Positions 4,180 through 62,374 of a stretch of 64,000 nucleotides of DNA are shown here, in pieces. Position numbers and translations under genes: made by a program. Source of the stretch: a virus; the IMG/VR virus record IMGVR_UViG_3300048074_000027, positions 676 through 64,675 of that record; one strand, 5' to 3'. A model generated the notes under the pieces. The model did not search any database. It was not told the origin of the DNA and saw nothing but the letters and a program-made list of their open reading frames with translations. Within the stretch, counting starts at the first letter, position 1, and every line of letters starts with the position of its first letter.

Positions 4180-5030
4180 AAATTTAATGGTGGCTGGAAT
4201 TTCCCGCCGCCGCTGATTGTCGTGGTTTTCCCTGTGACCGGCGTTGGTGACATTTGCGCCCCATCACCGAAACCAAACGGGCGGTTATTTGCGACAGGTG
4301 GGCCGTCCGGCTGACCATCGCCGTCAACATCCCATTGCCAGACCATCATCAAGATCATTCCGCCCAAAACCGCAATAACAATTTCCAGCGCGGATGCCCA
4401 AAATAGCCAGCCAAACCACGAAGCGCGCACTTCTTCCGGCGACTTGATGGTTTCCGGCGCTTCTTTCGGCGGCACAGTCACAACAGAAGAAAACGACGGC
4501 AGAGAAGGCGTTGTAGCCGTCGCTGGATTGCCGCCTTGCGGCACGAATCGGCGCTGGCTTGGCGGAAGCTGAATCAAAAGCCGCCGCTGTTCTTTCATTG
4601 CGTCCGTTTCGAGCTTCATTCGCTCAGCATCGGCCTGCCTTAACGCCAATTGCCGCTGGACATCTCTGTCCATATTTTCCTGACCAGCTTTGCTCTTTTG
4701 CTCTTGAACAATGCGCGCCTCTTTCCCTGCGGACACTTCGCGGGCAATCTGAAAATGGAATAAAGCCACAACGCAAGTCAGCGCAGCAACCGCGAAATCG
4801 TGCCAAAGGGCATACTTTCGCGTGTTTGGCGCAGCGTTGCCGGAAAAGTACGTGGAAATGCCGGAAATGCCAATCACGACAACCACGAACACCGTAGCAA
4901 TCCACAAGGCATCGGGGAAGACTTCACGGTTTGACCACGCAATGGCGATTTGTGGCAACACGATGGCAAAGCCAAACATTGCGATTTTTGGCCAGTAGAT
5001 ACGCTTTATAAGCAATTGATCTTTCGTCAC
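4176..5030 (-). CDS. Membrane protein: 3 TM, coiled coil, Pro/Thr linker, TM, DxDxDG loop
   Basis: Hydrophobic segments and heptad-rich region in the translation. Confidence 0.75.
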   Translation of the reverse strand: MTKDQLLIKRIYWPKIAMFGFAIVLPQIAIAWSNREVFPDALWIATVFVVVVIGISGISTYFSGNAAPNTRKYALWHDFAVAALTCVVALFHFQIAREVSAGKEARIVQEQKSKAGQENMDRDVQRQLALRQADAERMKLETDAMKEQRRLLIQLPPSQRRFVPQGGNPATATTPSLPSFSSVVTVPPKEAPETIKSPEEVRASWFGWLFWASALEIVIAVLGGMILMMVWQWDVDGDGQPDGPPVANNRPFGFGDGAQMSPTPVTGKTTTISGGGKFQPPLNF

Positions 5031-5063
5031 TTGAAGATTTCCTTTGCGCCCATCGGCGCGGTT

Positions 5064-5255
5064 TTATTTCGCCTGCCATTTGTAGGTTTGATCTTTGCAC
5101 TTCATTTGCTGAAGATTGCTTTTGGTCTGTCCGGTTGGCTGGCAGTACGGTTCCGGCCCGTAATAAGAGCGAAAACCGTAGGCCACAAGCGCCGCCGCAA
5201 TGACGACAAGGCATCCCCAACCGATAACGTCAAGGCTTGTAGATGCTCTACTCAT
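5064..5255 (-). CDS. Small single-TM membrane protein
   Basis: Hydrophobic N-terminus, GAGG RBS. Confidence 0.55.
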   Translation of the reverse strand: MSRASTSLDVIGWGCLVVIAAALVAYGFRSYYGPEPYCQPTGQTKSNLQQMKCKDQTYKWQAK

Positions 5256-5291
5256 TGAATTTGCCTCTGTGAGAAAGGCGATGGCGCGAGA

Positions 5292-5320
5292 TTGACGCGG
5301 CAGGGCAATGCGGCTAGCAT
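5292..5320 (+). promoter_or_regulatory. Sigma70-type promoter TTGACG-17-TAGCAT
   Basis: Same TTGACG...TGCGGC-TA pattern as the promoters at 1451 and 2251. Confidence 0.65.
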
Positions 5321-5326
5321 CCGGCG

Positions 5327-5403
5327 TCAGCCTGCGCGACCATCGCAGGTTGATGTTGCCGCCGATTGCTTTGGAAGTCTCGCAGTCGGCGGCGTTTTAT
5401 TTT
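5327..5403 (+). ncRNA. Candidate ~75 nt two-hairpin small RNA
   Basis: Promoter upstream; 10-bp stem TCAGCCTGCG/CGCAGGTTGA; 12-bp stem GCCGCCGATTGC/GCAGTCGGCGGC then T-tract; no ORF. Confidence 0.55.
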
Positions 5404-5413
5404 CAAAATCTAG

Positions 5414-5443
5414 TTGACCTCGAAACATTTACCAATATACAAT
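5414..5443 (+). promoter_or_regulatory. Sigma70-type promoter TTGACC-18-TACAAT, ATG 8 nt downstream
   Basis: Consensus hexamers, no SD before ATG 5452. Confidence 0.6.
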
Positions 5444-5451
5444 AACTGCCG

Positions 5452-5706
5452 ATGACAACACAAGTAGAAACCGCAATGACGTTGGCAGAAGTTGCTGCGC
5501 TCTTGCGGGGAACGATTGACGAATGGGCAACCAATCGCCCGAAACCGCTCAAGCCATCCGTCAAACGGTGGGCAAGGGCGCACAAGCAGGATTTCCCGCA
5601 CATTTACAACGTGCTAAACCAAAAGGCGAAGCCGGGGAAGAAGCTGCGAAAGTTGCTGGACATTGAACCGGAAACATATTGGAGAAAAGCGCGAAATGAA
5701 AAATGA
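5452..5706 (+). CDS. Small basic protein, possible Cro-like regulator
   Basis: 84 aa, basic, first gene after the divergent promoter; HTH not certain. Confidence 0.5.
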   Translation: MTTQVETAMTLAEVAALLRGTIDEWATNRPKPLKPSVKRWARAHKQDFPHIYNVLNQKAKPGKKLRKLLDIEPETYWRKARNEK

Positions 5707-5842
5707 CACCCTAACAAAAATCACCCGCACGATCCGCGCCCGTGACGGCAGAGGACGACGATATAGGCACGGGACTTGACGAGTACGTGTATCAGATACG
5801 CGGTGGTCAAGTGACGCCGGGCAGCTTGGCGCGTGAGGAATA

Positions 5843-6049
5843 ATGATGATTCACATTGAGCAAAAAGATAGCACTGAAGCCGGTAGATGTCAGGGATGCG
5901 CCTCAAGTCTTCCGAACCGCTCGGTGCTAAACTACCCGGTCTACGTGCTTACTGTGAGCCGAAACCCGATTATGATGAATGAGCTTAGATTCTGCTTGCG
6001 ATGCCTTGAAGATTTGCGTGAAGAGGTCGCAAAGATTATTCCGTTTTGA
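5843..6049 (+). CDS. Small zinc-ribbon-like protein
   Basis: CQGC and CLRC pairs; GAGG RBS. Confidence 0.6.
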   Translation: MMIHIEQKDSTEAGRCQGCASSLPNRSVLNYPVYVLTVSRNPIMMNELRFCLRCLEDLREEVAKIIPF

Positions 6050-6247
6050 ATTTAACGCATTGAGACGACGTTTTTGACGAGAGTTTTCATGTCTCAATTC
6101 CCACAAGGGCGTTAATCAAGGATAAATCCATCGTGACAGCCGGAGATAGCGGCACAGACTTTTTCGATCTTTCACACTTTGCGGCGCGTTGACGCGAGCC
6201 TTTCGGTGAACTTGGTTTGTGTCAGTGAGGCGCGTCGCAAACAGGTT

Positions 6248-6415
6248 TCGGAGTCCCGCCCGCAAGGATCGGAGTCCCGCCCGCAAGGAAGTGACTCGCT
6301 CTTAACCCCGATGGGGTATCGCTCGTTTCTACAGATTCCGCCTGCCCCTTCGGGTGTGCTTGAATGGGCGGGTGGCGAAAATAAATTGCACGCGAGTGCT
6401 CTTTTGTCTGTTAAT
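6248..6415 (+). repeat. Element A, copy 1 (21-bp tandem duplication at 6248-6289; ends in TTGCAC-18-GTTAAT promoter)
   Basis: Aligns by eye to 38374-38518 (minus) and 60908-60969 (plus). Confidence 0.85.
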
Positions 6416-6421
6416 TGAGAC

Positions 6422-6736
6422 ATGGAAAAAATCGCTCTTAAAACAAGTCGCATAGCAACTCCGATCTGGCGCTGTAGGTGCTGTGGCGCTGAAAACGATC
6501 AACGCGGTTGCGTTAAAGGCCCGCCGAATTGTTTCTGCGAAAAAGACAAAAGCCTACTAATGGAGCCTCTGCGCTGTACGTGGTGTGATAAGTGCTCAAC
6601 GCACTGCCGCTGCCATGACAGCCTTTGTAAGTGCAGGTTTCTTGAAGTGCGGTTCACGGCAAATGTGCCGCAAGGCCACGCGCCAAACTGTCAAAGCCGG
6701 AAACTGTTTCGGGAGCGCCTTCGCCATCCGGCGTAG
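6422..6736 (+). CDS. Cys-rich protein (14 Cys in 104 aa), cargo of A1-B1
   Basis: ATG 6 nt after GTTAAT; stop codon lies within element B1. Confidence 0.65.
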   Translation: MEKIALKTSRIATPIWRCRCCGAENDQRGCVKGPPNCFCEKDKSLLMEPLRCTWCDKCSTHCRCHDSLCKCRFLEVRFTANVPQGHAPNCQSRKLFRERLRHPA

Positions 6737-6875
6737 CCGAGAGCGGGGCGGCGGGCGGGCGGAAGAAACCGGAATGCCCTCGCGCACTCCATTCCGTCGG
6801 CTCGCTCAATCGCTCACACGACTGCACTGCCGTGCTAGGGGGTCGTCTCTTACCCCTACAGGGTGGCGTTCCTTC
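6722..6875 (+). repeat. Element B, copy 1
   Basis: First 19 nt identical to B2 (37778 downward); aligns to 62106-62240. Confidence 0.85.
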
Positions 6876-7098
6876 GATGAACCGCGTTTTGCGACGGATG
6901 ACGCGCCACGAAATAAAACCAGAATAGGGAGCGTAGGCGGATCGTTCAAACTTCTCCGCGCCGCGCTTCCCTAAATCCTTACAGCGCATTAAATAGCCAC
7001 ACATCTGGCAACTTACCTTGCCGCGCTTCCTCTAATTGGGCGATAATCCGCCTACCTATGGTGCATCTTATCAACCCTCTCCCCCTGAGAGGCTAACA

Positions 7099-7431
7099 AT
7101 GGCGATTGCCGACAATGGGGCAAAGGTGGACAAAACGGGCCTTGCGATTGAAATTCTATACGTAACGGTTTCGGCGCTTGGCGGCTTGGCAAAATATCTA
7201 AACGGTTACTTGCGCGGAAAGCGCTTTGATCTCTGGAAACTTCTAGCTTCGATGCTGGTCAGCGCCTTTAGCGGCGTGACGTGCGCGCATTTGGCATTGC
7301 TCATTAAGCCCGGCTGGGAAATAATTGCCGCCTCTGTTGGTGGATTTATGGGCGGCGAGGCAATGACCTTTCTCGCAACGTGGCTTGGCAAGAAACTCGG
7401 CATCGAAGATGACGACTCGAAAGCTCCATAG
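7099..7431 (+). CDS. Phage holin, LydA-like
   Basis: Three TM segments, SAFSG...ASVGGFMG motif, charged C-terminus. Confidence 0.75.
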   Translation: MAIADNGAKVDKTGLAIEILYVTVSALGGLAKYLNGYLRGKRFDLWKLLASMLVSAFSGVTCAHLALLIKPGWEIIAASVGGFMGGEAMTFLATWLGKKLGIEDDDSKAP

Positions 7432-36698: not shown

Positions 36699-37550
36699 CT
36701 ATGCGGCCTTTGCCTGCGGTTTTGCACCGCCAATGGATGTCCCGGCTTGCTTGGCCAACTGTTGCGCCTTTTCCATTCCGTGTTTGCTGATGTACTGTCC
36801 CTGATCGGTCAGGTTCCAGTTCTCGCCTTTCCACGGATTCAAACCACTGCCGCCGTTGCCCGTGTCGCCGCGTGCGCCACCGCCTTCACTTGGCCCCCAC
36901 CACAACGGGCGCTTGGCCTGCATTTCGCTAAACCATATGTCAGCGGTAATGCCGGGCGTCACGCCTACGCCGTCTTTCGTGACGACGCGGCCATCGCTGG
37001 AAATCTCAAACATCCGTTCCGCATTAAGTAAAATATCTTCTTCCGCTTCCTGCGCTGCCTTGACTTGCACGCGAGCTTTGCGGACTTCATCGGTAATCAA
37101 TCGCAATCTGTCTTTCGTTTCCAGTCCGATCAGCTTTTCCGTCGCGGTTTTCAGCTTTTCTTCCGTTAGTGTCTTTTCGCGCTCAATCGGTGCAAGCTTC
37201 GTCTTGAGGCGGCTTTCGACAATCTCATTCAACTTGGCCTCATCAACCTTGCCGCTTGCTGCGGTTTTAAGTTCGTCGTATCCATCGAATGCCTCAATGA
37301 CGGTTTTCAACTGATCGTCGGACATTTCCACGATAGATTGATTGTCAAAGTGAAGCGGTCGCAAACGATCCTTCGTGCCTTTGTGCGCGAGTCGTTCCGC
37401 GTCCAGGCTTCGCTGTACCCGGTCAACATCTTCCTGCGTTTTCAGCCCTGCGATGCCGGTCAGTTGCCATTTGCCGTTCCGTTCCGTGAACAATTCCCGG
37501 TGATTTTCGGGAATGTCGTCTTGCTTTTCGTAAACAAGATTCAACGCCAT
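36699..37550 (-). CDS. Capsid scaffolding protein
   Basis: Coiled coil; SEGGGARG...NPW...WNLTDQG C-terminus. Confidence 0.8.
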   Translation of the reverse strand: MALNLVYEKQDDIPENHRELFTERNGKWQLTGIAGLKTQEDVDRVQRSLDAERLAHKGTKDRLRPLHFDNQSIVEMSDDQLKTVIEAFDGYDELKTAASGKVDEAKLNEIVESRLKTKLAPIEREKTLTEEKLKTATEKLIGLETKDRLRLITDEVRKARVQVKAAQEAEEDILLNAERMFEISSDGRVVTKDGVGVTPGITADIWFSEMQAKRPLWWGPSEGGGARGDTGNGGSGLNPWKGENWNLTDQGQYISKHGMEKAQQLAKQAGTSIGGAKPQAKAA

Positions 37551-37620
37551 GCGCAAATCCTTTGTGTGTTACCTTGCCGGATCAATCCGCCAAGTGCGCC
37601 GTGGTCAACCAAAGCGCGGA

Positions 37621-37778
37621 GAAGGAGTGCCGCCCCAGAGGGGCAAACGACGACCCCCCGCCCTCGGCAGTGAAGCAGTGCGGCGCGACTTAGCGACGCC
37701 TGCGGAATGGAGACGGGCGAGGGCTGCCTTTTGTCTTCCGCCCGCCCCGCTGCCCCGTTTCGGCTACGCCGGATGGCG
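37621..37778 (-). repeat. Element B, copy 2
   Basis: Starts immediately after the stop of 37779..37991; aligns to B1 and B3. Confidence 0.85.
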
Positions 37779-37991
37779 CTAAGTATTCAGCTTAAGCCAA
37801 CCTCGAAGAAACTGAATCTCTTTGGATTGAGCCTCAATTACCCTGCGAGCAAATTTATCGATCTCGCCAGAAAGCCCGGTTTTGATAACTTTTTCGGACA
37901 TCTCAATCGCCATTTGGTGATGCGGAATCATTTCCTTAGCGTACTTGATGTCATTCTTGATGTCGTACTGTGAAGATGAAGGCATTTCCAT
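37779..37991 (-). CDS. DUF305-like (ferritin-like) small protein
   Basis: MIPHHQMAIEM...IEAQSKEI motif. Confidence 0.75.
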   Translation of the reverse strand: MEMPSSSQYDIKNDIKYAKEMIPHHQMAIEMSEKVIKTGLSGEIDKFARRVIEAQSKEIQFLRGWLKLNT

Positions 37992-38028
37992 TTTATTTAT
38001 CCTTTTTGGTTCATTAGGCACTGTTGAT

Positions 38029-38367
38029 TTATAAGCTTGACGCGGAGCGAGAGCGCACGGCAAGTATTTGCTTGTGATATTCAAGATCGCGCTGCAATGA
38101 TTCGATCATCAGTTTTTGCTTTCCAATGATCTCATTGCCCCCATTGATTTGCCTTTGTTTTGAGGCTAGTTCAAGGGATACAGCGGAGTTGGCAGCGTCT
38201 AGCCCATTTGCGAAATGGCTAATCCGGCAATGGTGGCAATTGCAATCCTGCTCGCAAGCGTCCCACTGCGCGCACTTCGGAAATTTCTCTTCCTGCAAAT
38301 CGCGCAGGAAGTCTGCGGCTTCGCCAATTTCGAGATAGTCAGTGTTAGGTGAAAGATGGTTATTCAT
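38029..38367 (-). CDS. Hypothetical protein with Cys/His cluster and coiled coil
   Basis: ATG 6 nt after GTTAAT of element A2; CAQWDACEQDCNCHHC. Confidence 0.6.
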   Translation of the reverse strand: MNNHLSPNTDYLEIGEAADFLRDLQEEKFPKCAQWDACEQDCNCHHCRISHFANGLDAANSAVSLELASKQRQINGGNEIIGKQKLMIESLQRDLEYHKQILAVRSRSASSL

Positions 38368-38373
38368 AATGGC

Positions 38374-38518
38374 ATTAACGGACAAAAGGACGACCGTGTG
38401 CAACTTATTTTCGCAACCCGCCCACTTCAAGAAAACCCGAAGGGGCGGCGGAATCTGTAGAAACGAGCGGCACCCCAGAGGGGTGGTAAGCGAGTCACTC
38501 CTGGCGGGCGGAACTCCG
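38374..38518 (-). repeat. Element A, copy 2 (ends in TTGCAC-18-GTTAAT promoter)
   Basis: Aligns along its length to A1. Confidence 0.85.
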
Positions 38519-38660: not shown

Positions 38661-38732
38661 TTGCGGCGATGGGAATTGAACCCACTATTTCAAGGTTATG
38701 AGCCTTGCGACTTACCGGTCGTCCTCACCGCG
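38661..38732 (-). tRNA. tRNA with CAT anticodon, initiator (fMet)-like; no encoded CCA
   Basis: Cloverleaf: CAAGG-CT CAT AA-CCTTG, TTCAATT T-loop, C1:A72 mismatch, A11:U24. Confidence 0.8.
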
Positions 38733-39240: not shown

Positions 39241-39426
39241 CTAATCTAATAAAACAATTTGCTTTGATTCTTCAATTATTTCAATGTTCGGCATAAGCTC
39301 TCTGAACAAATAAATAGCATTACATAGTAATTGAGTTGCAATTGCTCGATTTGGCGCGCAGCACAACTCATCCACAACAACTCCATCTAATGTTTCAAAT
39401 TTAATCCTGTAACGCTTATTTTCCAT
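39241..39426 (-). CDS. Small AT-rich hypothetical protein
   Basis: Overlaps the portal stop codon. Confidence 0.5.
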   Translation of the reverse strand: MENKRYRIKFETLDGVVVDELCCAPNRAIATQLLCNAIYLFRELMPNIEIIEESKQIVLLD

Positions 39427-40912
39427 TTTGACTCGCGGGAACGTCTGGCGGTTGGCCCGTTACAGGCTGCGGCATCAATTCCATTTTCGCTTTCTTCTCT
39501 TCCATCACCTTCGCCATTTCCGCCACAAACTTCTTATCCGTGAATTCGTTTTCCACAAGTAAATCGTGAACAGACTCATCCGAAAGCGGCAAGCCTTTTT
39601 CGCGTGCGCTTTGCAAGTCAAGGAATTCAGCGGGCGTCATTCCCGCTTCGACAAATTCCGTGTTCGGGAAGACATTGACCTTTGCCGGGTCTGCGCCCAT
39701 CCATTCCGCAATAATGCGAAGCATTGATTGAAGCCCTTCGCCGCCTGTCAGTGCAATCTGTTTCAGCGTAACCGTCTGCGCTGCTACTCGCACTTTCAAG
39801 GCTTCGCCGGATTCCTTTTGCCGCGACGACGTATCCAGCATTTGCCCGGCAATCTCTTTCGCTTCGTTTCGGTCATTTTCGAGCGCTTGGCGTTGCTCCG
39901 GCAATCCGGCTGAGTTTGTGCCGATGAATTCCGTTGGGTTGGCAGCGTCCAATGGCGGACAAATCGTCGCGCCGTAGCCGATGCGGTAGGTTGTTTCAGG
40001 ATCGCCGCCTGGAACGACTAATGTATCCTGCGATTGCGCGAATAGCCCTTGCCTATAATCCGCTTCGCCTCGATAGATCGTCAAGCACAAGTCCGCCAAT
40101 TCATCCATCGGCGGCATTTGTGGGCAGGGTACAAGGTCAGTCGCGTTGATAAACACGAACGGAATTTTATTGAGCGTCTTGCCGCGCAGCTTCGGCTCCA
40201 TCAATCCGTTTTCATCAAATCCGTTCGCATCCAAGAATACGCCTTGCCTGTAAACGCCCATCGGTTCCGCTGCCGTCACGTCACCAATGACCAGCACGCG
40301 ATATTTGATGACTTCAACCCATTCAAAGTTGGCGTTCATTACCTTTTCCGTTTCATTCAAAACGACAAGGTTCAATGACTGGATAACCGGATTCCCGCGC
40401 TGGCCATCGTTCCAATTCGTAATGGTCTCAGCGGAATAAAGCGCAATCGCGGGCATAGACTCAAGCGTCTTACCTTTCGGCATGTCGCTCATCAATCCGA
40501 CTCTGCCAACCGTCAACTGCTCTGCGTTAATGCGACGAAGCAGCAAGGACAAGGATTCGCCGGATGTGCTGGCGAGCGTTCGCAGCGGTTCCATCGCAGG
40601 CGGCAATTCAATCACGGCGGCTTGGCTGTGCATCGCGCCAACCATCTGTTCGACAGCACGTTTGACGTAATTTGGGAACCGCGCACGCTTTTTGTAAGCG
40701 AGGTAGTTCTTGTAGCCGTCTTGGTGTGTCAGCATCCCGTCAATCAATTGGCCGGGCGTGGCGGGCAAATAACACCGAGCCTTTGTTGAGTCGCCCGTGT
40801 CTACAGCCTTAATCCACGCTTCGCCCTTGTAGCAGTCGCGGAGCTTTTGCCACGTTTCGGCCATATCTGTGTATTGTGGATGCCTTGAGTCTAAAGCCAT
40901 TCTTTTATCCAA
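39416..40912 (-). CDS. Portal protein (DUF4055-like)
   Basis: HPQY...W...RDCYKGE...YLP...AYKKRARF; directly after terminase. Confidence 0.9.
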   Translation of the reverse strand: MDKRMALDSRHPQYTDMAETWQKLRDCYKGEAWIKAVDTGDSTKARCYLPATPGQLIDGMLTHQDGYKNYLAYKKRARFPNYVKRAVEQMVGAMHSQAAVIELPPAMEPLRTLASTSGESLSLLLRRINAEQLTVGRVGLMSDMPKGKTLESMPAIALYSAETITNWNDGQRGNPVIQSLNLVVLNETEKVMNANFEWVEVIKYRVLVIGDVTAAEPMGVYRQGVFLDANGFDENGLMEPKLRGKTLNKIPFVFINATDLVPCPQMPPMDELADLCLTIYRGEADYRQGLFAQSQDTLVVPGGDPETTYRIGYGATICPPLDAANPTEFIGTNSAGLPEQRQALENDRNEAKEIAGQMLDTSSRQKESGEALKVRVAAQTVTLKQIALTGGEGLQSMLRIIAEWMGADPAKVNVFPNTEFVEAGMTPAEFLDLQSAREKGLPLSDESVHDLLVENEFTDKKFVAEMAKVMEEKKAKMELMPQPVTGQPPDVPASQNGK

Positions 40913-42305
40913 TGCCTGCGGAGCGGCCTGAGTGAACCTTTGGTGGTCGCGGAGCCATCAGCCTATATCGTGTCAAATCGCCTAAGTGATCTTCCGCGTC
41001 CGTGTCTACATCATCCCGCTTTTTCTTGTCACGCGGCAATGAGGGGACAGTGCGAATCCATTGTAGGCAAGGATCAAAGATAAACAAACCGGATTCTTCC
41101 ATCGGCGTTCCCGTTGCCGCTTTCAGGTATCGGCGGATGCGCTCCCATCCAATCTTTCGACTGCCCGGCGACTTATCAGCCTCAAGCCATTTGATGCCCA
41201 CCTTTGCCATATCATCGGCGATGCTGACGCCATTCTCCGCGTCAAAGATGGAACTGTCAGCACATCCCGGCTGCACTTTGAACGGCATCTCAATTTCACG
41301 ATCTTTAATGCCGCGTGCAATCTCAATGGCCAGCATCTTGCAGCCCTCGTTTGGCCGTCCGTTCCATCCGTACCACTCATCAATCAGAAACACTGAGCCA
41401 CGCGGATAATGCCTTCCGTTGGGCGCTTGCGTGCCGTCGCTTTCTGCCCACCACGCGACACCAAAGGGCTTGGATGATCCCCAATCAAATGTGCGGTCAA
41501 CTTTCCAGCTTTTCGGAATGTCAAATGGGTCAATGACGTGAATCGAACGACGCCACAAATCATCCAGCATTCCGCCCGCTACGATATTCCAATCGCCCCA
41601 ACGCCAAGCTTTCTCTAACGCCTCATCGCCAGCGGTTGCCGCCTTGACGCGCTTCCAGTAGTCAGGATCATTTTTCAGTAGCGCCGGATTGTCGTCCAGT
41701 GTCGAGGGGATGAAAACGCGCCACGTCTCAGCCTCTTTGTCATAGAACGGACTAAGCGGCGGGGCAGGGTCAATGTATCGCGCCTTTACCCAGTTGTGGC
41801 CAACGCCACCCGGATTCCCAGATGCCCGGAAACTCTTATCAATTGGCGCATCGCCGGAACGAAGGCAAGCGCGGAGCTTGTCTATCGGTTTCGGGTCTGG
41901 CCAGTTCGTAAGCTCATCAAAGGCCATCCAGGTATAGGCGTGTCCCTGATACCTGTCCGCATCAGCGTCCCTGTCCAAATACCGAAGCTTGAGCGTTGAA
42001 CCATTTGCAAAGAACCATGTGCGCTTTCCGCTGTTATAGACGCCGCCAACAGCGGGGAAGATGCGGCTCGCTCTATCCTGAACTTCGTCAAGTTCGTCAT
42101 ACGTCCGGCGAAAGAAAATCCCGCGTGCATTTTCGCCGTGCAGGTCAGAGTGACTAAGCCAGTCGCCAAGCAAGCCGTAAGTCTTACCGCCGCCGCGTGC
42201 GCCGCCATAGAAAACATCTTCAATCGGGCAGCTAATCAGCGAAGTTTGCGGCCCCGATTGCGCCTCAAATACTATTCGCTTTGTGCCTTTTGCAGACGTT
42301 CCCAT
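40905..42305 (-). CDS. terL: Terminase large subunit
   Basis: Walker A YGGARGGGKT, Walker B AFDE, SGNPGG, FDWG, DHLGDLTRY. Confidence 0.95.
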   Translation of the reverse strand: MGTSAKGTKRIVFEAQSGPQTSLISCPIEDVFYGGARGGGKTYGLLGDWLSHSDLHGENARGIFFRRTYDELDEVQDRASRIFPAVGGVYNSGKRTWFFANGSTLKLRYLDRDADADRYQGHAYTWMAFDELTNWPDPKPIDKLRACLRSGDAPIDKSFRASGNPGGVGHNWVKARYIDPAPPLSPFYDKEAETWRVFIPSTLDDNPALLKNDPDYWKRVKAATAGDEALEKAWRWGDWNIVAGGMLDDLWRRSIHVIDPFDIPKSWKVDRTFDWGSSKPFGVAWWAESDGTQAPNGRHYPRGSVFLIDEWYGWNGRPNEGCKMLAIEIARGIKDREIEMPFKVQPGCADSSIFDAENGVSIADDMAKVGIKWLEADKSPGSRKIGWERIRRYLKAATGTPMEESGLFIFDPCLQWIRTVPSLPRDKKKRDDVDTDAEDHLGDLTRYRLMAPRPPKVHSGRSAGIG

Positions 42306-50316: not shown

Positions 50317-50829
50317 TCATCTTCTGCCTTCTAAGTAACTATCCTTGAACAGGTTAGGAAAGGCTACGGCTAAAAGGCTATCGTCTCGTTTACACGGATG
50401 ACTGTCTGGCATCAATTGCCGCAAATCCGCACGCTGAAGTTCTTGATATTTCAGCCATCGCATTTTCTTGTCTGGGTATTGATGACGAAGAATAGATTTC
50501 TGAATCGCGTCTTTGTCTCGCTTCCGCCAAGTGTGACTCATTACTTGGCGATTCAATAGCGGCTTGTTTTCGACAATCGCAAACTTTTCCACTTCCCAAA
50601 GTTCAATACGCCGAACCTGCAACCACGCGATCTTAGTTGCGCCTTCCGCCGCTGCTTTCTTTATGTGATGATGATTCACCCAGCGCGCTCTTATATTCTG
50701 CGCTGAGCCGATATAGAGAAGCCTACGTTCGGCCATCACAAAATAGACGCCCCAAGTATCGGGTAGTTTGTCACGCTCACTAAAAGCGACAGAGGGCAAT
50801 CCGTGAAAGGTGAGCGGCAAGAATCTCAT
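50317..50829 (-). CDS. GIY-YIG nuclease-domain protein
   Basis: GVYFV...LLYIGSAQNIRARW...E...N. Confidence 0.8.
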   Translation of the reverse strand: MRFLPLTFHGLPSVAFSERDKLPDTWGVYFVMAERRLLYIGSAQNIRARWVNHHHIKKAAAEGATKIAWLQVRRIELWEVEKFAIVENKPLLNRQVMSHTWRKRDKDAIQKSILRHQYPDKKMRWLKYQELQRADLRQLMPDSHPCKRDDSLLAVAFPNLFKDSYLEGRR

Positions 50830-51041
50830 ATCTTTAGAAGCTTCTCGGTGATTACGCCTCGGCGCTCTAGCACGATCAATTGTAGCGCCCGTTTCAACAT
50901 AGCTGGATGACGCGGTTTTCGTCTGCCGGTATACCAAGCCATCACCACCTTATCATTCGCATCTAATTGTTCAGCCAGCCGGGAATAGGTCAGTCCGGTT
51001 GCGTCAATCAGTCCGCGAAGTTCAATATCAATCTCATTCAT
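50826..51041 (-). CDS. Small HTH protein coupled to the GIY-YIG gene
   Basis: GLTYSRLAEQLD...VMAWYTGRRKP; ATGA overlap. Confidence 0.75.
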   Translation of the reverse strand: MNEIDIELRGLIDATGLTYSRLAEQLDANDKVVMAWYTGRRKPRHPAMLKRALQLIVLERRGVITEKLLKI

Positions 51042-51344: not shown

Positions 51345-53520
51345 TTAGCTTTTAACCTCCACATGCCGCACACATCCCGGCACTTTACACAGAATCCTAA
51401 ACTTCGCGCCCATCGGCACAATCTGCCCGCGCATCTCAATCGCAAACCGGCGCGGCTTCACGATGCGGCCATCGCCTGCGTTGAAGTTGACGCCCTCGAA
51501 TATCTGGCAAGGATCACGAAGGCCCTCTGGCGCATCCTGCTCGCGCAGCAAAGCTCGGAACCGCTCGTTTGCGTCGGTAACAGTGCGCGGCGCTTGGTTT
51601 TTCACGGTGAAGCCGTCGCGGTTTATGCGAAATTCGGTTTGCATAATTTACTCCCTATTGGATTGACTATAGCTGACAATTAAACATCGTCTATTTTATC
51701 AAATCTCACGCATGGACAGTCGCCGATCATTTCATTTATGAACGCTTCGCACTCACCGTCAGCAGGATGAGATTCTCTCCGATGCGTACAGGTACACATA
51801 TCGCTTGCGCTATCGTCACAGCAGGCTACGGCATCGGACTCGCTATCGTGTTCCTCTTCGCATTCACCGCAAACATACACGCGCCTGACTGGTTCTTTAC
51901 AGCAAACCTCGGCTTCGCCATGCGTCTCACATAACGTCCCACAGTGCGGACATTTCCATTGTTCTTTTGCGTTCACTTACTCAACCTCCTTGCCGGCAAT
52001 CAGCCGGTGTGCTTCGTAAAAATCTTGCGCTGTCGTCACGCCCCTTAGCCATACCATTGCCGATCCGGTAAACAGCCAGACGCGAAACGGATGCAAAGGA
52101 TGCTCGTTGAATCGAACGCCGATTCTGCGTTCCGGCGGGTGTAGTTCATTATCGCTGCCAATTTCCATCCAGTATTCCGGGCAAGGCGTCTCAAAATTCG
52201 GGTACCAGGTGATGTTTTTAAGCCCTGTTACCTGACACCATTTTTCAGTAATCGCTTCACTCATTCGCTCGCGCCTCCCCGCGCTTTACTGTCCGCAAAA
52301 TCAGATTGCCTTTTCACCTCGCAAGACATCCGATGGTGCGGCCATTTCACGTCGTATCCGGCCCGCCTCATTGTGGCATCTATATCCACATTGCAGAGGC
52401 AATAATTATCCTCTTCGTCACCGGGTTCGGATGCGTTTTCAGCGTCCCAAAACTTGATAGAGTCATTGCCGACCAGCGCCCGAAGCTGCCCAAGCGTTTC
52501 AATCTCTGTTTCATTGCCAATATAGATCGAGATGCACATTTTAACCTTCCGCCTCCAATTCCTCCGGCCACTCTTCCGCCAACACCAACTCATCGCTTGC
52601 CGCGCCGCCTACGTGGTCACACGGCATCCGGCCTTCGACTCGGAAGCGCCAGGATTCCGTAACCACGCGCTCCGCATCTTCGGCAGCGGTAACGATTGCG
52701 CCGGACTTGAGGCGCACCGTGTCACCTTTGCGGATTTGGTCAAGTCGTTTGGTCATTTAAGCTCCACTTTTCCAAAACCACACCGACACAGCGCAGCTTT
52801 GGTTAATTCCTCAACCATCAGTGCGAGCGACTCGCTTAGTGTAAACCGCTCGCTTCCTTCGCCGGAAAGCCACATCTTGCCATCATCAATAATCAGCGCT
52901 ACCGTACTCGGGATGTTCGGCGACTTGTCATCGTGGCTGCGGACATTGATCGCCGCGTCAAGCAATTCTTCTATCGTTTCAAACACAATTATATTTTTCA
53001 TTCAGCCCTCATACTTATCGCCCTTGTGATACTTCCCCGCTGGCACGGCAACAAAGAACCGATCCTCGACGCCTTGCCGAGCGATGGCCATCTTAATAAT
53101 CCCTTCGGCGGCATCTTCTGTTTTATTCGGCTCAAGCCAAAGGATTTCGCCGCTGTCGGAGCTGACGGCGATTGCGTCAAAGAATTGGTGCATCTGAACA
53201 TCTTCAACAAGCCAAAACTTAGGCGTCAAATTGTGCTTTTCCATCCACGCCTTAAATGTCTTCCGCAGCCCTTCGGTCAACTCGTCAACTTGTTCTTTTG
53301 AAGCTTCTGGCCAATCTTCAGCTTGCTCAATGTAAAAGTCTTCAAGTTGGCAAATCTGTTCAATTACATCTTGGCCATCAATACCGAACATGACATCGGG
53401 CGGACGATTCTCCCCCGTCCAAAACTTGCTCAGCCCTTCCGCTCTAGCTTCCGCAATCGCAAGCTCTCGCGTTGCAAATTCGCCGGTGTAGTGTTCTTCG
53501 TTATGTGAGTATGAAAACAT
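51345..53520 (-). CDS. Small hypothetical genes (51345..51644, 51680..51976 Zn-finger, 51977..52264, 52261..~52539, 52541..52756, 52753..53001, 53002..53520)
   Basis: Abutting ORFs with RBS motifs. Confidence 0.6.
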
Positions 53521-55017: not shown

Positions 55018-55655
55018 TCAGCCTTCCCGCTTCCACTTCTGCCAATCCCTGAGCGCCGCAAATGCCGCCGATTCCGTGGCCGGTGATTGCGCTTCCTCTT
55101 CCGCGACGGCAAGCGCAATGGCGCGAAGTAGCGCCATCTCATCGGACTGCTTCTGCATCGCTTCCGTTGCGGCGACAATGTCTGCCCAGCAAGCGCGGAT
55201 TTCATCGCAAAGCTTCAGGATAATAGGCTCGCCATATTGGCCTATCGCCTTTTGTGTTTCTTCGAGATCGTCAACGTATGATGGTGATAATCTTTCGCTC
55301 ATACTTCCTCCCTGACAACTTCAAACACTGGCTTCCCCGGCACTTCATCAGCACAGCGCCGAAGCTCGATATAATGGCCAAGTTCAGGATAGCGCTTAAT
55401 AAGTTCGCGGGATAAAAACGAAACCAAATTGTTATTCAGTTTGAATCCTTCGGCGTCTTTCTCCCACGTCGCCATTACTTGCCAGCGAACTCTCTCCGCA
55501 AGCGCTTTCATTCCGAATCGCCGCTTGCGGTTGGCCATCTCTAGTGCGAATCGCTCAAACAGCGCGAACGCTTGCGGATTGGCCGTGATCCACGCGGCTG
55601 CGGCCTTGCGTAGTTTGGCTTGCTGGTCAAAGTTGAACGCGGCTTGCTCGCTCAT
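55018..55655 (-). CDS. Two hypothetical genes (55018..55302, 55299..55655)
   Basis: 4-nt overlaps. Confidence 0.6.
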
Positions 55656-56197
55656 ACTGCATCCCCTCTGTAATACCGCTCAATTTTATCAATCGCCTCA
55701 GTTGCGGAGTAGCACACATGGACGGCGTAACCTTGCGCCTGCACGTCATCAATAAATTGCCGCTGTGCAGGCGACACCTTGCCAACTGTAGATTTCATTT
55801 CAACAAACAGGCCGTGCGCAATGCTTCCATCTTTCTGCTTTCGGGCTATTGGCAAGAATAAGTCACACACGCCTGCGGTTGTGCCGGTTCGTCGAAGCTT
55901 TCGAGCTTCCCCCAATATGCGCTTGCCACCGTTCGGGATAGCGAATAACAGATTGATGCCCGGCATTCGGCCAAGCATTACCTGATCGTCACGCCACTTG
56001 ATAACGGCGGCTTGATGCTCATCTTCGCTGATAACGAGCTTCTTTGTTCGCTTCGGCTTTGCCTTTTTCTCAATGACTGCGGCTTGCGTTCGGCGCTCGG
56101 CAACTTCCGTGTTCGCCGTTTGCCCAATTTGCTTCATCCGTCGCTGGTGCGCTTCATAATCGAAGCCCGCCGCAAACTGACTCATTGATTGTGCCAT
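55652..56197 (-). CDS. VRR-NUC nuclease (PD-(D/E)xK)
   Basis: EDEHQ, FAIPNGG, GVCDL, LFVEMK, SPAQ. Confidence 0.9.
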   Translation of the reverse strand: MAQSMSQFAAGFDYEAHQRRMKQIGQTANTEVAERRTQAAVIEKKAKPKRTKKLVISEDEHQAAVIKWRDDQVMLGRMPGINLLFAIPNGGKRILGEARKLRRTGTTAGVCDLFLPIARKQKDGSIAHGLFVEMKSTVGKVSPAQRQFIDDVQAQGYAVHVCYSATEAIDKIERYYRGDAV

Positions 56198-57363: not shown

Positions 57364-58430
57364 TCATACGATAGACGACTCCCCTTGCTTCACCAAGCGA
57401 TGATCGGGCGTCAGCAAATAGCCAGTACAGCATACCCGCGCATCATCCTGATCTTGCGACCGCTGGCGACATTCGCCGCATTGATAGAGCTTTTGGATAT
57501 TCGACGCCTCGCCAGAGCATTCGCAATCCGCGCCCGCGTCGAAGAAGTCTGCTTTCAGTTGCCCTTTCGGGCTGCAAGTTAAACAGGTAAACCCGCTTTG
57601 AATAAACATCGCTTTCTCCCTCACGTAAACAGCCCCGCCTGCCTCAGCTCTTGCGCTTTCAGCCGCAGTACAATCGGCCTCCCTGGCTTCAGTGCGCGCC
57701 ACGCTTCGCCGCATTGCCCAGCACCAGCGCACAGCGGCCTGCACACGCGGCACAAGGCCATCTGGTCGCGGCAATCGCAGAAGTGCAGCGCGTCGGACGC
57801 GGGTAGACGGCGGCGCATTGGTCGCAGGCGGTCATGGATGTTTGTATCCTCTCAGTTGGGCGCGAATTTCTTTTTCGTCGTACTTCCAGCTTCCAAGCGG
57901 TTTCGCTTCGCCAGTTAGCCGTAAAAAACGCTTCACTCTTTGCGAAGATGGCTTGAGATACGTTCTGCCGCCAACCCAGATAGTCAGGCCAAAATCCTTC
58001 ACGTCTCGATATTCCCGCTTTAGTTCAAGGCTGGCCAGTTGATAGCTTGGCGTTTCCGTTAGATAGCGATCAACCAGCACTTCAGGACTAACCCGGCGGC
58101 GATCTTCCCGCACATCACCCGATCTGTTGACCGTCATCAGATACACCGTACAAAGCCCTGTTTTTGGCAACAAGCTCAGAGCTTCAAATCGTGAAAGCTT
58201 AATTGAATAGTTTTTCATCGTTCCCCCTCTTTCATCTTCGCCATCATCTCCCGCGCTTCCTTCGCCTTCGCCGCCCAGATGCGGGCTTGCCGCTGCTGGC
58301 GTGCGTCAGGAAATGTAGCGAAGGCGGCGGCAATAGTTTCGCGGCGGATGGCGATGCGACGGAGTTCTTTGATTTTTGCTTGGTTAGTCATCACGTCCTC
58401 AGTTTGAATGATTGAATCATTTGCTGCCAT
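57364..58430 (-). CDS. Hypothetical genes (57364..57609 Zn-finger, 57832..58218, 58215..58430)
   Basis: ORF track and RBS-like motifs. Confidence 0.5.
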
Positions 58431-59803
58431 TGCTCCGGCGTCCTATCGGCTTCATAAAACCACGCACGATCCGGCTTGAAGCCTACAAGCAAGCTGCCCA
58501 TTGGCCCATTGCGCTGCTTCAGGATTATCAACTCTGCTGAGTGTTGCGGCTCGGCTGTTGGATTGTCTATTTCGGGGCGATGAAGTCCGAATACCAGCGC
58601 GGCATCTTGTTCGATTTGGCCGGATTCTTTGAAGTCACGAAGCGATGGTTTATTGCCGTGCGCATCCCGGTTCAACTGCGCCAATGAAACGCCGCAAATA
58701 TCATTTTCCTTGAAAAGCTCCGTCATCCCTTTGCAAAACCGTGCAACCTCTTCCGCTCGCGTTCCTCTGCCTTTCTCGCCGTCGCCAAGCTGCAAATAGT
58801 CCGTGAAAACCATATCTGGCATCTGGCCTTCTGCCTGCTTAATCACCCGGATTGCCTGACGAATCTTTGCCACGGACAGTCCGCATCGGTCATCAAAATG
58901 AACGCGCATTTTAGCGACGATTTCTTCCGAATAATGCACGCGCCGCCATTCATCCGGCGAAAGGTTGCCGCGATGCAGTTCAAGCGCGTCAACATCGGCC
59001 AAGATTGCCACCATTCGCCGCATTAGCTGTTTTGCGGGCATTTCCATCGAAAACCAGACAATCAACGGCGGCTTGCCATCTTCGCGGACGTTCCACTTGC
59101 TCAAGCTCGCGTAAAGCGTAAGCGACAATCCAAACGCAGTCTTGCCAACGCCAGGACGCGCCCCAATGACTGTGTGAAACTTCCGCTCAAGGCCAAGCGT
59201 CATCCGGTCAATTCCGTGAAAGCCTGTCGAGAAGCCGACAACGGGCCGGTCAGAGTTCATCCGGCTTTCTACTTCCGCGATGTAATCTGAAAAAACTGCG
59301 CCAGCGCTTTGCCAGCTTGATTCGCCGTCATCGCACACGCCGGACAATTCGCGCTCAATCTCTGCAATCTGAAACTCTGTCGAGTCTTCATCGTCAAAAG
59401 CTCGCATCACAGCTTCGTAGCCGATGGAAATAAGCTTCCGAAGTTGCGCCTTCTGTCTCACGATTTTGACGTAAGCCTCTATCCGCGAGAAACGAGGCAC
59501 ACCATCAAACAAACTGGCGATATAGGCAGCGCCGCCGATGCGTTCAAGATCAAGCGTCCGGCGTAATTCTTCCTGAAGCGTGAGCGGGTCAATGCCAGTT
59601 TTCCAAATGCGTTTCATCGCGGCGAATATGATCTTATGCGACGGCGTGTAGAATTCATCTTCGCTCAGTAGCGCCGCCTGCTCCATTAGCGAATTGTCGA
59701 GAATAATACAGCCGAGTATCGTTCGCTCATTGTCCACGCTGGACGGCATCGGGCGGTCAAGAAACACATCGGAAAAGCGGGATACTTGTTTCAGAGTAGA
59801 CAT
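58391..59803 (-). CDS. dnaB: Replicative DNA helicase
   Basis: GARPGVGKT, FSMEM, DYLQL, LAQLNR, SGQIEQDA, KQRNGP. Confidence 0.95.
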   Translation of the reverse strand: MSTLKQVSRFSDVFLDRPMPSSVDNERTILGCIILDNSLMEQAALLSEDEFYTPSHKIIFAAMKRIWKTGIDPLTLQEELRRTLDLERIGGAAYIASLFDGVPRFSRIEAYVKIVRQKAQLRKLISIGYEAVMRAFDDEDSTEFQIAEIERELSGVCDDGESSWQSAGAVFSDYIAEVESRMNSDRPVVGFSTGFHGIDRMTLGLERKFHTVIGARPGVGKTAFGLSLTLYASLSKWNVREDGKPPLIVWFSMEMPAKQLMRRMVAILADVDALELHRGNLSPDEWRRVHYSEEIVAKMRVHFDDRCGLSVAKIRQAIRVIKQAEGQMPDMVFTDYLQLGDGEKGRGTRAEEVARFCKGMTELFKENDICGVSLAQLNRDAHGNKPSLRDFKESGQIEQDAALVFGLHRPEIDNPTAEPQHSAELIILKQRNGPMGSLLVGFKPDRAWFYEADRTPEQWQQMIQSFKLRT

Positions 59804-60726
59804 TATTCAACTCCCATAGCTCGGTGAAGGTTGGCAGGTAAAAGCGCTTTCTGGTTTTGAACGATGGTATTGTCCTTTGGCGTCGCATAGGCAATGAATC
59901 GTTCAACGTGTGAGGCATCGCGCAAGATTAAGTCTATTCCGTCGTAGACCGTCGCGGAATTGTTTTGCCCTTGGTGGTAGGCGGAATTTTTACAGCCATC
60001 AATCGCAATTTTTAGCCTGTCAACGCTAAAGCCCTCTTTGAGCCGGGCGATTATGATTCGCCTGCGCTTTGCGTCTAAAATTGACCGTGGATGGTTATGT
60101 TTGATTTTCCAATAGTCGAAAACTTCTGATACCTGAGTGCTGTGCTTGTCGGGTTTTAGTGGCTCCATTGGCAAACTCTCGCTTTCCGGTAAGTCGGGCG
60201 ATGGCTTGTTTGACATGTCTTCTTTAGTATTAAGAATACAAGTTAAAGAATAAGAGCTTTGCTGCAAACCGTTTTCCAAGTTGCCGACAACTTGCTCGCA
60301 AGTGGTTTTTGTATCTTGCTGTATCTGTTCAGGTTCCGCCTCGACTTGTTTTTGAGTCGCGCCGCTCTCGCCTGATTCCCCCTTCTGTTCAATGACTTCT
60401 GGTGGTTCAGGGAATACGGATTTCTCATCAGGATGCGGCGATTGATAGCGAATAAAGCTTGTAATGTGAATGTATTCGTTGCCGTCAACTTGGTAGAAAC
60501 TTATGAGCAACTTGGAAGCAAGTTGTTTTAGCCAAGTCGTTGCGTCTTCTACGGTTGCGTCATAGGGTAAAATTTCAGCCTTCAATCTTTTGGGGCGATG
60601 CTCTAAATTTCCGTTCCGATCCGCGAAACACCAAAGCCCTTGAAAGAATATCCGGCCAAGCGGGTCAATATCGGACAATGCCTCGTTTTTGAAGAAATTC
60701 GGCGAGAGATTGCGTTTGCGCGGCAT
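59803..60726 (-). CDS. Phage replication initiator / replisome organiser
   Basis: PNFFKNE...FFQGLWCFADRNG N-domain; VFDYWK C-domain; adjacent to DnaB. Confidence 0.8.
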   Translation of the reverse strand: MPRKRNLSPNFFKNEALSDIDPLGRIFFQGLWCFADRNGNLEHRPKRLKAEILPYDATVEDATTWLKQLASKLLISFYQVDGNEYIHITSFIRYQSPHPDEKSVFPEPPEVIEQKGESGESGATQKQVEAEPEQIQQDTKTTCEQVVGNLENGLQQSSYSLTCILNTKEDMSNKPSPDLPESESLPMEPLKPDKHSTQVSEVFDYWKIKHNHPRSILDAKRRRIIIARLKEGFSVDRLKIAIDGCKNSAYHQGQNNSATVYDGIDLILRDASHVERFIAYATPKDNTIVQNQKALLPANLHRAMGVE

Positions 60727-60728
60727 TC

Positions 60729-61061
60729 TTAATAACCCCCCACTTCTGACTCCATCAAGTTTTCTTCCTCCATCTTCTGACGACGGTTCCACTCTTCAAT
60801 TTCAGCCTGATGATAGTCTTCCGCGTCTTGTCCGTCTCGAACCGCGTCTTCTTCTTCACCGACTAAATCCTCGGTTTCAATTAAGCATTGAGGCAAGTCG
60901 TGACTGGATCGGAGTTCCGCCCGCCCAAGCGACTCGCTTTCAGCCCCTACAGGGCATCGCTCGTTTCTGCATTCGTTTTTCTTGCGTCCAGCACTCAATG
61001 GTTCGCCCTCAGTTAGATTGTAGATATTCTTTGGCTTCGTCGTACGCTTGAAGTAAGCCAT
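60729..61061 (-). CDS. Hypothetical acidic protein whose ORF runs through element A3
   Basis: ORF track; RBS plausible. Confidence 0.45.
   Translation of the reverse strand: MAYFKRTTKPKNIYNLTEGEPLSAGRKKNECRNERCPVGAESESLGRAELRSSHDLPQCLIETEDLVGEEEDAVRDGQDAEDYHQAEIEEWNRRQKMEEENLMESEVGGY
60908..60969 (+). repeat. Element A, copy 3 (core only, no promoter part)
   Basis: ATCGGAGTTCCGCCCGCC...GACTCGCT...GCCCCTACAGGGCATCGCTCGTTTCT. Confidence 0.8.
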
Positions 61062-62088
61062 TCTCGAAAGGCGCAGCTAGTCCGTTCAGGCTTTCGTTCA
61101 GCGCATCCTTTAGCTTATTGGGCAGCAAGTGGTAACAGCCACGGCACAGCGGTAGGCTTTTGACCTTTCGCTTACCACAGAAACAATTCCAAGAACCTAC
61201 CGCTTGTGCGACTTTTCGAGTGTGTATGACTAATTCATTGTGTGTCATAACCTAAAAGCTTCCTCGCCCTGCCGTGCGCGCACTCGCCCTTACCTACCCA
61301 CAAATGTTCTTGGCAATAACCGTGGTGGTCTAAGCGGCACGGATCGGAACTTACAATCTGACTCAGAATTGTTTTCAATTCGTTCGCCTCTTGCTGAAAG
61401 TGTACGGCGTTACCTGCCCAATGCGTTGCGCCTTCGCGTATCTTTTTCAGCTTTTTGATTTCGGCGATAGCTTCGGCAAATAAGTCTGCCTTCGGTTCGC
61501 CTGTAATATCAATCAGCATCCAGATAAGCGTATCGCGCTCGTATTTGGTCTGGTCTGGTTCGTTCGGAATTGACACCGCTTTTTCGATGCCAGCGCGTAG
61601 GAGCGCAAATACGTCATCACGTCGAATCAACTCTTCGCCGTCAGATGCGAAGTCTACTGTTGGCATTTCAGCTATGGCCTGCCGAGTGTTGACCACGCTG
61701 AAGCGTGCATTCCACCCCGCCTCAAAATACATAAAATCAAGCGGCCATCCGCACTCATCGGGGAACTGAATCCGTTCGTCGTTGATGTTGCATCCGGTTT
61801 TAATTGCCCACGCTTCAAGTAGTTCGGTTGGGTATTTACTACTCCGCTCTTCAGTTAGAAAATCGTTCATCGCATTGTCTCCACTGCTGGCAAAACGTGC
61901 TTCTTGAAATCTCCCACCGTCATCCAACTGCTGAGCGTGGAATAAACACCATCGCCAAGCGTACAGTTGCCGGAATTATCTTTCTGCACGCATAGCCAGA
62001 TAAATTGCGCATCTTTGGTGACACCAACGAAGCGAAAGCCTTGCTGGTTGGGAATATCTCTTGGTTCACGAATTATGCTCATAGCCAT
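61009..62088 (-). CDS. Three genes between A3 and B3 (61009..61248 Zn-finger, 61235..61870, 61867..62088)
   Basis: Overlapping ORFs, GGAG RBS. Confidence 0.6.
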
Positions 62089-62105
62089 TGCTCCTATACA
62101 GATAA

Positions 62106-62240
62106 CCGAAAAACGGGGCGGGCGGAAAACACCAGAAGGCCCTGGCCCGCTCCGGCTACAGCGGCTCGCTCAATCGCTCGCACGCCTTCTCCATCCGGGG
62201 CCGGGGGTCGTCACTTGCCCCTACAGGGCAGCGTTCCTTC
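62106..62240 (+). repeat. Element B, copy 3
   Basis: GGGGCGGGCGGAA...GGCTCGCTCAATCGCTC...GGGGGTCGTC...GCCCCTACAGGGCAGCGTTCCTTC. Confidence 0.85.
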
Positions 62241-62374
62241 AGCGCACATCCCGCCGAATCCGCTATCCGGGTCAATTTCTTCTTCGATCAATTCCGTGTC
62301 GCATTGGATGCAAGTCATACGTCTCCTTTCGTGCGCGTCTCCGCTGCCGGTGCGCGGCGGGCGTGGATGCGAGA

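Follow-up and report, generated by a model that had tools for sequence, protein, structure and literature searches.

Passenger-gene cassettes with folded ends in a tailed phage are probably tnpB-less derivatives of IS200/IS605-type elements

Three short units in a tailed-phage genome, each consisting of a non-coding end (A), passenger genes and a second, unlike non-coding end (B), are probably tnpB-less, non-autonomous derivatives of IS200/IS605-type (IS1341-like) insertion sequences that carry passenger genes and recombine with one another. They lie in the window, the whole 64-kb stretch of DNA that was analyzed, which is contained in a 65,147-bp IMG/VR record (76% complete). The three copies of A and three of B that had been read from the letters alone were recovered by direct reading, a repeat finder, MAFFT and nhmmer, and the whole 65-kb virus record holds no further copy of either. 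In all three units A is followed downstream by B on the same strand around unrelated cargo, as had been proposed, and this arrangement extends to nearly every complete A found elsewhere. Both ends contain a hairpin module, and an 11-nt segment beside the A terminus (X) pairs with a segment (X') ∼110 nt inside the B end, across the cargo. The features are as follows.

36699-37556: head scaffold gene
39416-40912: portal gene
40905-42305: large terminase gene
58391-59803: DnaB helicase gene
59803-60792: replication initiator gene
6249-6269, + strand: tandem repeat of the first 21 nt of unit 1 (CGGAGTCCCGCCCGCAAGGAT), just outside the unit, seen by direct reading
6270-6415, + strand: unit 1, whole A end
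6270-6330, + strand: unit 1, A core, with terminal CGGAG, X (6275-6284), a purine-rich linker and the hairpin module
6293-6330, + strand: unit 1, A hairpin module, GACTCGCT-hairpin-CGCTCGTTTCT, homologous to the ends of tnpB elements
6331-6415, + strand: unit 1, A tail, with a second hairpin, the conserved GCGAAAATAA and then a promoter-like pair
About 6337-6378, + strand: unit 1, second hairpin of A, with a CUUCGG loop
6386-6391 and 6410-6415, + strand: unit 1, promoter-like TTGCAC and GTTAAT
6422-6736, + strand: unit 1, cargo, a Cys-rich ORF of 104 amino acids with no family match
6722-6875, + strand: unit 1, B end, with a small hairpin (CGCC-ATCC-GGCG), X' (6753-6764), a multi-helix body and the hairpin module
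Within 6722-6875, + strand: unit 1, B hairpin module, GGGGGTCGTC-hairpin-GGCGTTCCTTC
6876-6881, + strand: unit 1, flank GATGAA, that is NNN, the invariant G and AA; candidate TAM-like target motif
38374-38518, - strand: unit 2, A end, with CGGAG (38518-38514), X (38513-38503), the hairpin module, a second hairpin and a promoter-like part
37779-38367, - strand: unit 2, cargo, a 112-aa Cys/His-rich ORF (38367-38029) and a 70-aa DUF305 ORF (37991-37779)
37621-37778, - strand: unit 2, B end, with X' (37746-37736)
60910-60971, + strand: unit 3, A core only, with CGGAG, X (60915-60926) and the hairpin module
61009-62088, - strand: unit 3, cargo, three ORFs (79, 230 and 73 aa) opposite to the A-to-B direction
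62102-62240, + strand: unit 3, B end, without the first small hairpin, with X' (62116-62127)

The first A end is real, but it is shorter than originally drawn (from 6248), for 6249-6269 is a tandem duplicate and not part of A; the resulting double of CGGAGTCCCGCCCGCAAGGAT (6249-6290) could be the footprint of an earlier event at this end. The promoter placed at the end of the same A is only putative: the TTGCAC/GTTAAT pair is there with an 18-nt spacer, but a consensus promoter scan did not call it, and several relatives have a Shine-Dalgarno sequence in its place. Terminator and promoter scans at the A and B ends found nothing. The cargo of unit 1 does stop within the start of B, its stop codon lying inside the first B hairpin. 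The A and B hairpin loops are identical within cassettes 2 and 3 and unlike within cassette 1. Unit 3 has neither the second hairpin nor the promoter-like part of A, and reverse-strand coding directly follows its A core. Past the B ends, the flanks of unit 2 (TCCG, 37620-37617) and unit 3 (AGCG, 62241-62244) both close with the invariant G, and the flank of unit 1 reads as TTC-N3 on the opposite strand. Between the portal and head scaffold genes, and immediately upstream of unit 2, there is a tRNA-Met gene (38662-38731, - strand). The early region of the phage also encodes a free-standing GIY-YIG endonuclease-like ORF (50317-50937, - strand) and a VRR-NUC nuclease (55652-56197, - strand), both unlinked to the units.

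Viral, metagenome and genome collections were scanned with sequence patterns, and an nhmmer search of every locus retrieved yielded 93 matches to A and 78 to B, spread over 78 loci; many of the raw pattern matches in the genome and metagenome scans were due to chance or to one unrelated conserved gene and were set aside. A-B pairs with different cargo, which the original prediction had proposed to look for in other contigs, are thus present in about 70-78 other loci on phage or metagenome contigs. Nearly every complete A has a B on the same strand 257-1333 nt downstream, the exceptions being cut by contig ends, and units span 520-1560 bp from (K)CGGAG to CTCCTTC. Their cargo includes N6/N4 and Dam methyltransferases, PAPS-reductase-like proteins, a DnaQ-like exonuclease, HTH proteins and many small Cys-rich proteins, with DUF305 in the window; it is mostly co-oriented with the A-to-B direction, with a Shine-Dalgarno or promoter-like sequence after A. 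No recombinase or transposase was found among the cargo genes of these loci.

Cassette copies are present in genomes grouped in the same class as a Blastocatellia metagenome-assembled genome (MAG; G005), which is consistent with an Acidobacteriota host. Three loci (L164, L205 and L207) come from MAGs labeled Heliomicrobium or Heliobacteriaceae, labels that are probably wrong; the MAG of L205 (G118) grouped with the class of G005, and hairpins in G127 and G148 match those of L207 and L164. Two further loci show individual variation. In L019 (12036-12700) an A end and its cargo precede a B of which just the first 15 nt (CGCCATCCGGCGTAG) are present; an HNH-endonuclease-like C-terminal remnant comes next, the B end having seemingly been replaced. 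L197 is a closely related phage, with about 87-94% identity to stretches of the window within 52.5-57.4 kb; there (4882-7168), an FGE-sulfatase-like gene and a 1352-bp unit occupy the place of two other small ORFs in the window (52757-53520), and the last codons of the sulfatase-like gene come from the first bases of the unit.

All-against-all BLAST of the loci showed that whole units move between unrelated sites and that their termini are defined. Units 98.8-99.9% identical occur in unrelated contigs, and near-identical units with unrelated flanks were seen for L136/L168/L207 (617 bp), L147/L197/L050 (1352 bp), L135/L164, L061/L084 and L026/L157. One type of cassette is bordered by no fewer than seven different sequences on the left and five on the right. 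In the shared units identity starts at most 3 nt from GGAG and stops at CTCCTTC. The K and C before GGAG travel with the unit and are best read as its terminal bases, a reading that the comparison of L132 with L160 supports. The proposal of a non-autonomous mobile cassette with A and B as its ends is thus borne out by identical units in unrelated flanks, by their differing cargo and by the absence of any recombinase from cargo and window.

The insertion sites have one constant feature, which is a G at position +4 past the B end in 52 of 52 distinct contexts; the three bases between the B end and this G vary even among identical units. Target-site duplication was not found beyond chance in the flanks compared, the mean longest shared flank word being 4.9 nt against 4.5 nt in shuffles. 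Nor do the units have long terminal inverted repeats, terminal complementarity amounting to 4 nt (GGAG/CTCC) besides the internal X/X'. Unoccupied sites were sought among the fetched loci and among relatives of the head scaffold gene beside unit 2, and none was found. Head-to-tail junctions of B to A, as expected of a circle closed end to end, gave only chance matches in the viral contigs. In one locus (L061, 7651-8424) a unit sits directly against a DDE-transposase-like ORF, which is truncated, terminates in YHKRS at the unit boundary and has no continuation beyond the unit; in related contigs the same ORF shows a 550-bp indel flanked by 12-nt direct repeats.

Both ends are predicted to fold. 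The A module (GACTCGCT-hairpin-CGCTCGTTTCT) and the B module (GGGTCGTC-hairpin-GCGCTCCTTC) are homologous direct repeats with covarying stems, so that subterminal hairpins lie at both ends of the unit on the same strand. The long-range helix between X and X' also covaries. In unit 1 X' is complementary to X and in unit 2 it is a perfect 11-nt complement; the complementary A and B segments TTCCGCCCGCC/GGCGGGCGGAA are replaced by TTCCGCCGTCC/GGACGGCGGAA in L013, by TTGCGCTCGC/GCGAGCGCAA in L020 and L205, and by a TCCC.../...GGGA pair in L026. True partners scored 9.64 for complementarity compared with 8.81 ± 0.16 for shuffled partners, and none of 1000 shuffles reached the observed value. Because X pairs with X', both ends of the unit can be held together in a single strand, and when A and B were joined in RNAalifold the terminal GGAG also paired with the terminal CTCC.

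The B end on its own is a covariation-supported multi-helix structure, with 28 predicted pairs, compensatory changes in 10 of them and 96.5% of cells paired; its covariation score is 0.270, against 0.107 for shuffled alignments (0 of 500 reach the observed score) and at most 0.083 for slid partners. An excess of GU over AC (234:53) does not mark the strand that folds, for a reverse-complement control gave a similar bias. Consensus energies are also similar for the forward and reverse strands (-92.0 versus -88.3 for B; -51.5 versus -49.2 for A), and strand-specific folding is therefore not supported. Covariance models of known Rfam families, with the gathering threshold and E ≤ 10 on the window and E ≤ 1 on six tnpB loci, matched tRNAs only. 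A known riboswitch, terminator or ssi family, a match to which had been named as a way to refute the mobile-cassette reading, was thus not found, and membership of any known Rfam family, omega-RNA-like motifs included, is not supported.

The relationship to insertion sequences came from ORF clustering of the loci, which identified a 410-aa TnpB (OrfB_IS605, 4e-32; Cas12f1-like_TNB, 1e-21) in L187, a locus from a Blastocatellia MAG, and in L045 and L100. The tnpB gene, an accessory gene of IS200/IS605-family elements, sits here between an A-like and a B-like end and runs against the A-to-B direction, and its stop codon lies at the very A-side terminus. The same organization, with tnpB between homologous ends, is found in L267, L268-L272 and L278-L284. 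The A-like ends align with the A of the window (GACTCGCT-hairpin-CGCTCGTTTCTGCC) and the B-like ends with its B (GTCTCCATTCCG...TCGCTCAAC...CACTGCCGAG...GGGTCG-hairpin; 84 bits by nhmmer for L187), and the X:X' helix is kept with quite different sequences, as TCGCAGATGGC/GCCATCTGCGA, AGGCGCGGCTG/CAGCCGCGCCT and the palindrome TCGCGCGCGA. Unit 3, with its reverse-strand cargo right after the A core, has the layout of a tnpB element, its cargo running in the same orientation as tnpB does in these relatives; none of the window's own units contains tnpB.

The tnpB elements also have defined ends and a flanking motif. Two of them, P0008 (L268/L270/L271) and P0059 (L278/L280), occur in two or three contexts each, some of them phage-like (beside tRNAs or a tape-measure gene), and the boundaries of identity coincide with the A-like and B-like ends; in L268 two tRNA genes are close to the element. 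In seven of nine cases the sequence that precedes the B-side end, in the tnpB sense, is TTC-N3, which in the A-to-B direction is a GAA at +4 to +6 past the B-like end. The C of TTC-N3 corresponds to the invariant G at +4 of the cassettes, where only that base is invariant. Five of the loci (L267, L272, L187, L270 and L278) share a conserved TGnTATAMT-like extended -10 box that faces tnpB and stands between the tnpB start and the B-like end, which places the B-like structure upstream of the apparent start of tnpB transcription. The TnpB clade has thousands of members, the named ones being from Chloracidobacterium and Blastocatellia, and tnpB-only (IS1341-like) elements of the IS200/IS605 family are common in these groups of the Acidobacteriota.

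Units recombine with one another, both inside B and at the hairpins, and mosaics and tandem arrays result. L050 and L147 have the left flank, A, the cargo and the greater part of B in common and then diverge from the B hairpin onward, and the same pattern is seen for L057 and L073 and for L035 and L146 with L137. In the converse case L061, L064 and L111 have a common B end and right flank around different cargo. The tandem arrays L084, L142, L128 and L093 have junctions composed of a B body, a hairpin and an A tail, and in L107 two complete units lie 9 nt apart. Since the A and B hairpin modules are homologous, the array fusions are explained by recombination between adjacent units.

These recombinants, together with the strong covariation, bear on an alternative reading, which we nevertheless consider unlikely. 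It holds that A and B act primarily as RNA, being structured 5' and 3' parts of cargo transcripts (stabilizers, processing sites or a ribozyme) that have spread only by homologous recombination between carrier phages, as the PeSL cassettes of T4 do. Abundant breakpoints inside B and at the hairpins would fit such a history, and UUCG and UACG loops in cassette-specific hairpins, the prevalence of A-to-B oriented cargo with a Shine-Dalgarno or promoter-like sequence after A, and RNA-library contigs over unit 1, one of which is 732 nt long and spans 6346-7077, would all fit a role in RNA. Exchange alone is insufficient, however, to account for identical units with exact ends in more than five unrelated flanks, which need insertion. 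The cargo is antisense to the fold in unit 3 and its relatives, and in the relatives with tnpB the B region precedes the apparent tnpB promoter and faces the other way. Folding energies do not single out one strand, the lack of an Rfam match also speaks against it, and the invariant flanking G points to a choice of target at the level of DNA.

A second alternative, that the hairpin cores are crossover sites of a tyrosine or serine recombinase, is in our judgment very improbable. Under this integron-like or att-like model a circular cassette (A tail, cargo, B body and core) would integrate at the core, so that A would be attL-like, B attR-like and the B-A fusions of arrays a product of integration. 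The direct-repeat homology of the two hairpin modules, the B body/hairpin/A tail junctions of the four arrays and several breakpoints at the 5' edge of the hairpin are as this model would have them, and a tyrosine integrase is encoded by four of the five element-bearing virus records and lies beside the unit in L024. Co-occurrence of tyrosine recombinases, which the original prediction had asked after, is therefore seen in those four records but not in the record of the window, where 65 kb hold no integrase or other tyrosine recombinase. The empty site (A-left, hairpin, B-right), the hybrid that had been suggested as a diagnostic, gave only chance matches in 2.9 million viral contigs, and its absence counts against att-type integration. 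Furthermore, identity of 99-100% extends to the outer parts of A and B, which move along with the cargo, the model does not explain why the outer A segment covaries with the B body, and recombination of adjacent units, such as those 9 nt apart in L107, explains the fusions equally well.

Two other readings were rejected. For a group I or group II intron, or splicing of any kind, there are no restored ORFs and no Rfam match at E ≤ 10; the units are intergenic or truncate genes without continuation (the transposase fragment of L061; L132/L160), and contigs from RNA libraries have no joints apart from cross-mapping between units. Membership among integron cassettes with attC sites, an analogy drawn in the original prediction, fails for want of an IntI, an attI or a tyrosine recombinase, with two unlike ends in each unit and no empty hybrid site.

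Of the kinds already known, the IS200/IS605 family and its PATE-like derivatives come closest. Members of this family transpose via single-stranded DNA with a Y1 HUH TnpA, and their ends, TAM/TEM motifs and DNA guides have been described together with PATE-like non-autonomous copies that are mobilized in trans (PMC10055086). Like these elements (IS1341-like ones and PATEs), the units have a subterminal hairpin at either end, both on one strand; the target is not duplicated, and a short motif is conserved in just one of the flanks; they have relatives with tnpB between homologous ends and the 3' end of tnpB overlapping one terminus; and the non-autonomous copies outnumber any autonomous one. 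Unlike them, the units carry one to three passenger genes, often with their own promoter-like sequence, reside in phage genomes and have no TnpA with matching ends among the best 30 Y1 loci. A covarying helix of 10-12 bp joins the ends of the unit, and one end is a structured body of about 110 nt; to our knowledge neither is a known feature of the IS200/IS605 family. The flanking motif also differs in placement, for the target motif of characterized elements directly abuts the element end (PMC10055086), whereas the conserved G of the cassettes stands three variable nucleotides off the boundary. We found no description in the literature of cargo-carrying, tnpB-less derivatives of this family.

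Other small mobile units share fewer of these traits. MPME1 and MPME2 of mycobacteriophages are 439-bp mobile units with a few base pairs of obscure origin between one end and the target (PMC3029335), and they resemble our units as ultra-small phage-borne units with identical copies at different sites and unexplained bases at one junction. They differ in having 11-bp terminal inverted repeats and an ORF of 123 codons of their own, have no sequence similarity to the units, and lack hairpin ends, the long-range helix and tnpB relatives. The T4 PeSLs, to which the elements had been likened, are similarly conserved non-coding blocks around variable accessory genes and serve as recombination substrates that shuffle phage cargo, but they are promoter-plus-stem-loop blocks without defined mobile termini or such folded ends, and the likeness does not amount to membership. 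MICs are also passenger-carrying units mobilized in trans, but have IS231-type inverted repeats, target duplications and no such folded ends. Integron cassettes share small cargo units, folded single-strand recombination sites and arrays; they differ by a single attC, IntI, attI and promoterless cargo, none of which was found in the units.

Given the IS200/IS605-type reading, the enzyme that acts on the ends would have to come from elsewhere. As had been reported from the letters, no recombinase or HUH enzyme was recognized in the window, and neither Y1 TnpA nor TnpB is encoded in its record or in the four other element-bearing virus records. Y1 genes occur in 66 of 81 Blastocatellia genomes, and the best 30 of these loci, searched for the co-occurring Y1 genes proposed earlier, have no A-like or B-like ends. 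The suggestion of an HUH enzyme gains indirect support from the homologous ends that flank tnpB, an accessory gene of the IS200/IS605 family. The transposase may instead be a serine (IS607-type) or other enzyme.

As an IS200/IS605-type derivative, then, A, cargo and B would form one non-autonomous unit that descends from, or is sister to, an IS1341-like insertion sequence, with A and B as its two cis-acting ends, each bearing a subterminal hairpin with conserved flanks, and with passenger genes standing in place of tnpB. In the canonical orientation of the insertion sequence (tnpB sense), B would be the left end and A the right end, and the X:X' helix would hold the two together. The transposase that moves the units in trans would be encoded by the host or by a co-resident element and would most likely be a Y1 HUH TnpA that works on single-stranded DNA; the units would insert without target duplication beside a short motif, probably TTC-N3 in the tnpB sense.

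A broader reading, which we think less likely than not, joins three roles: exchange of phage gene cassettes on IS200/IS605 ends, an "end-matching" helix and a scaffold for a TnpB guide RNA. Here the helix, acting in single-stranded DNA, would place the cleavage site of the right end beside the left end and thereby restrict joint movement to cognate ends. B (or A), co-transcribed with the cargo, would act as a scaffold for a TnpB of the host and so would bias the retention of cassettes in phage or host genomes.

Acidobacteriota are a major and poorly studied phylum of soil and wastewater. If the IS200/IS605-type reading is true, their phages exchange accessory genes in the form of discrete transposable cassettes that are built on TnpB-type insertion-sequence ends, and the genes traded would include methyltransferases, nucleases and small metal-binding proteins. 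The covarying helix from end to end would add to single-strand transposition, or to guide-RNA biology, a new feature that can be tested, and the family would offer compact natural "landing pads" together with a large TnpB clade that has defined ends and a candidate TTC-N3 motif.
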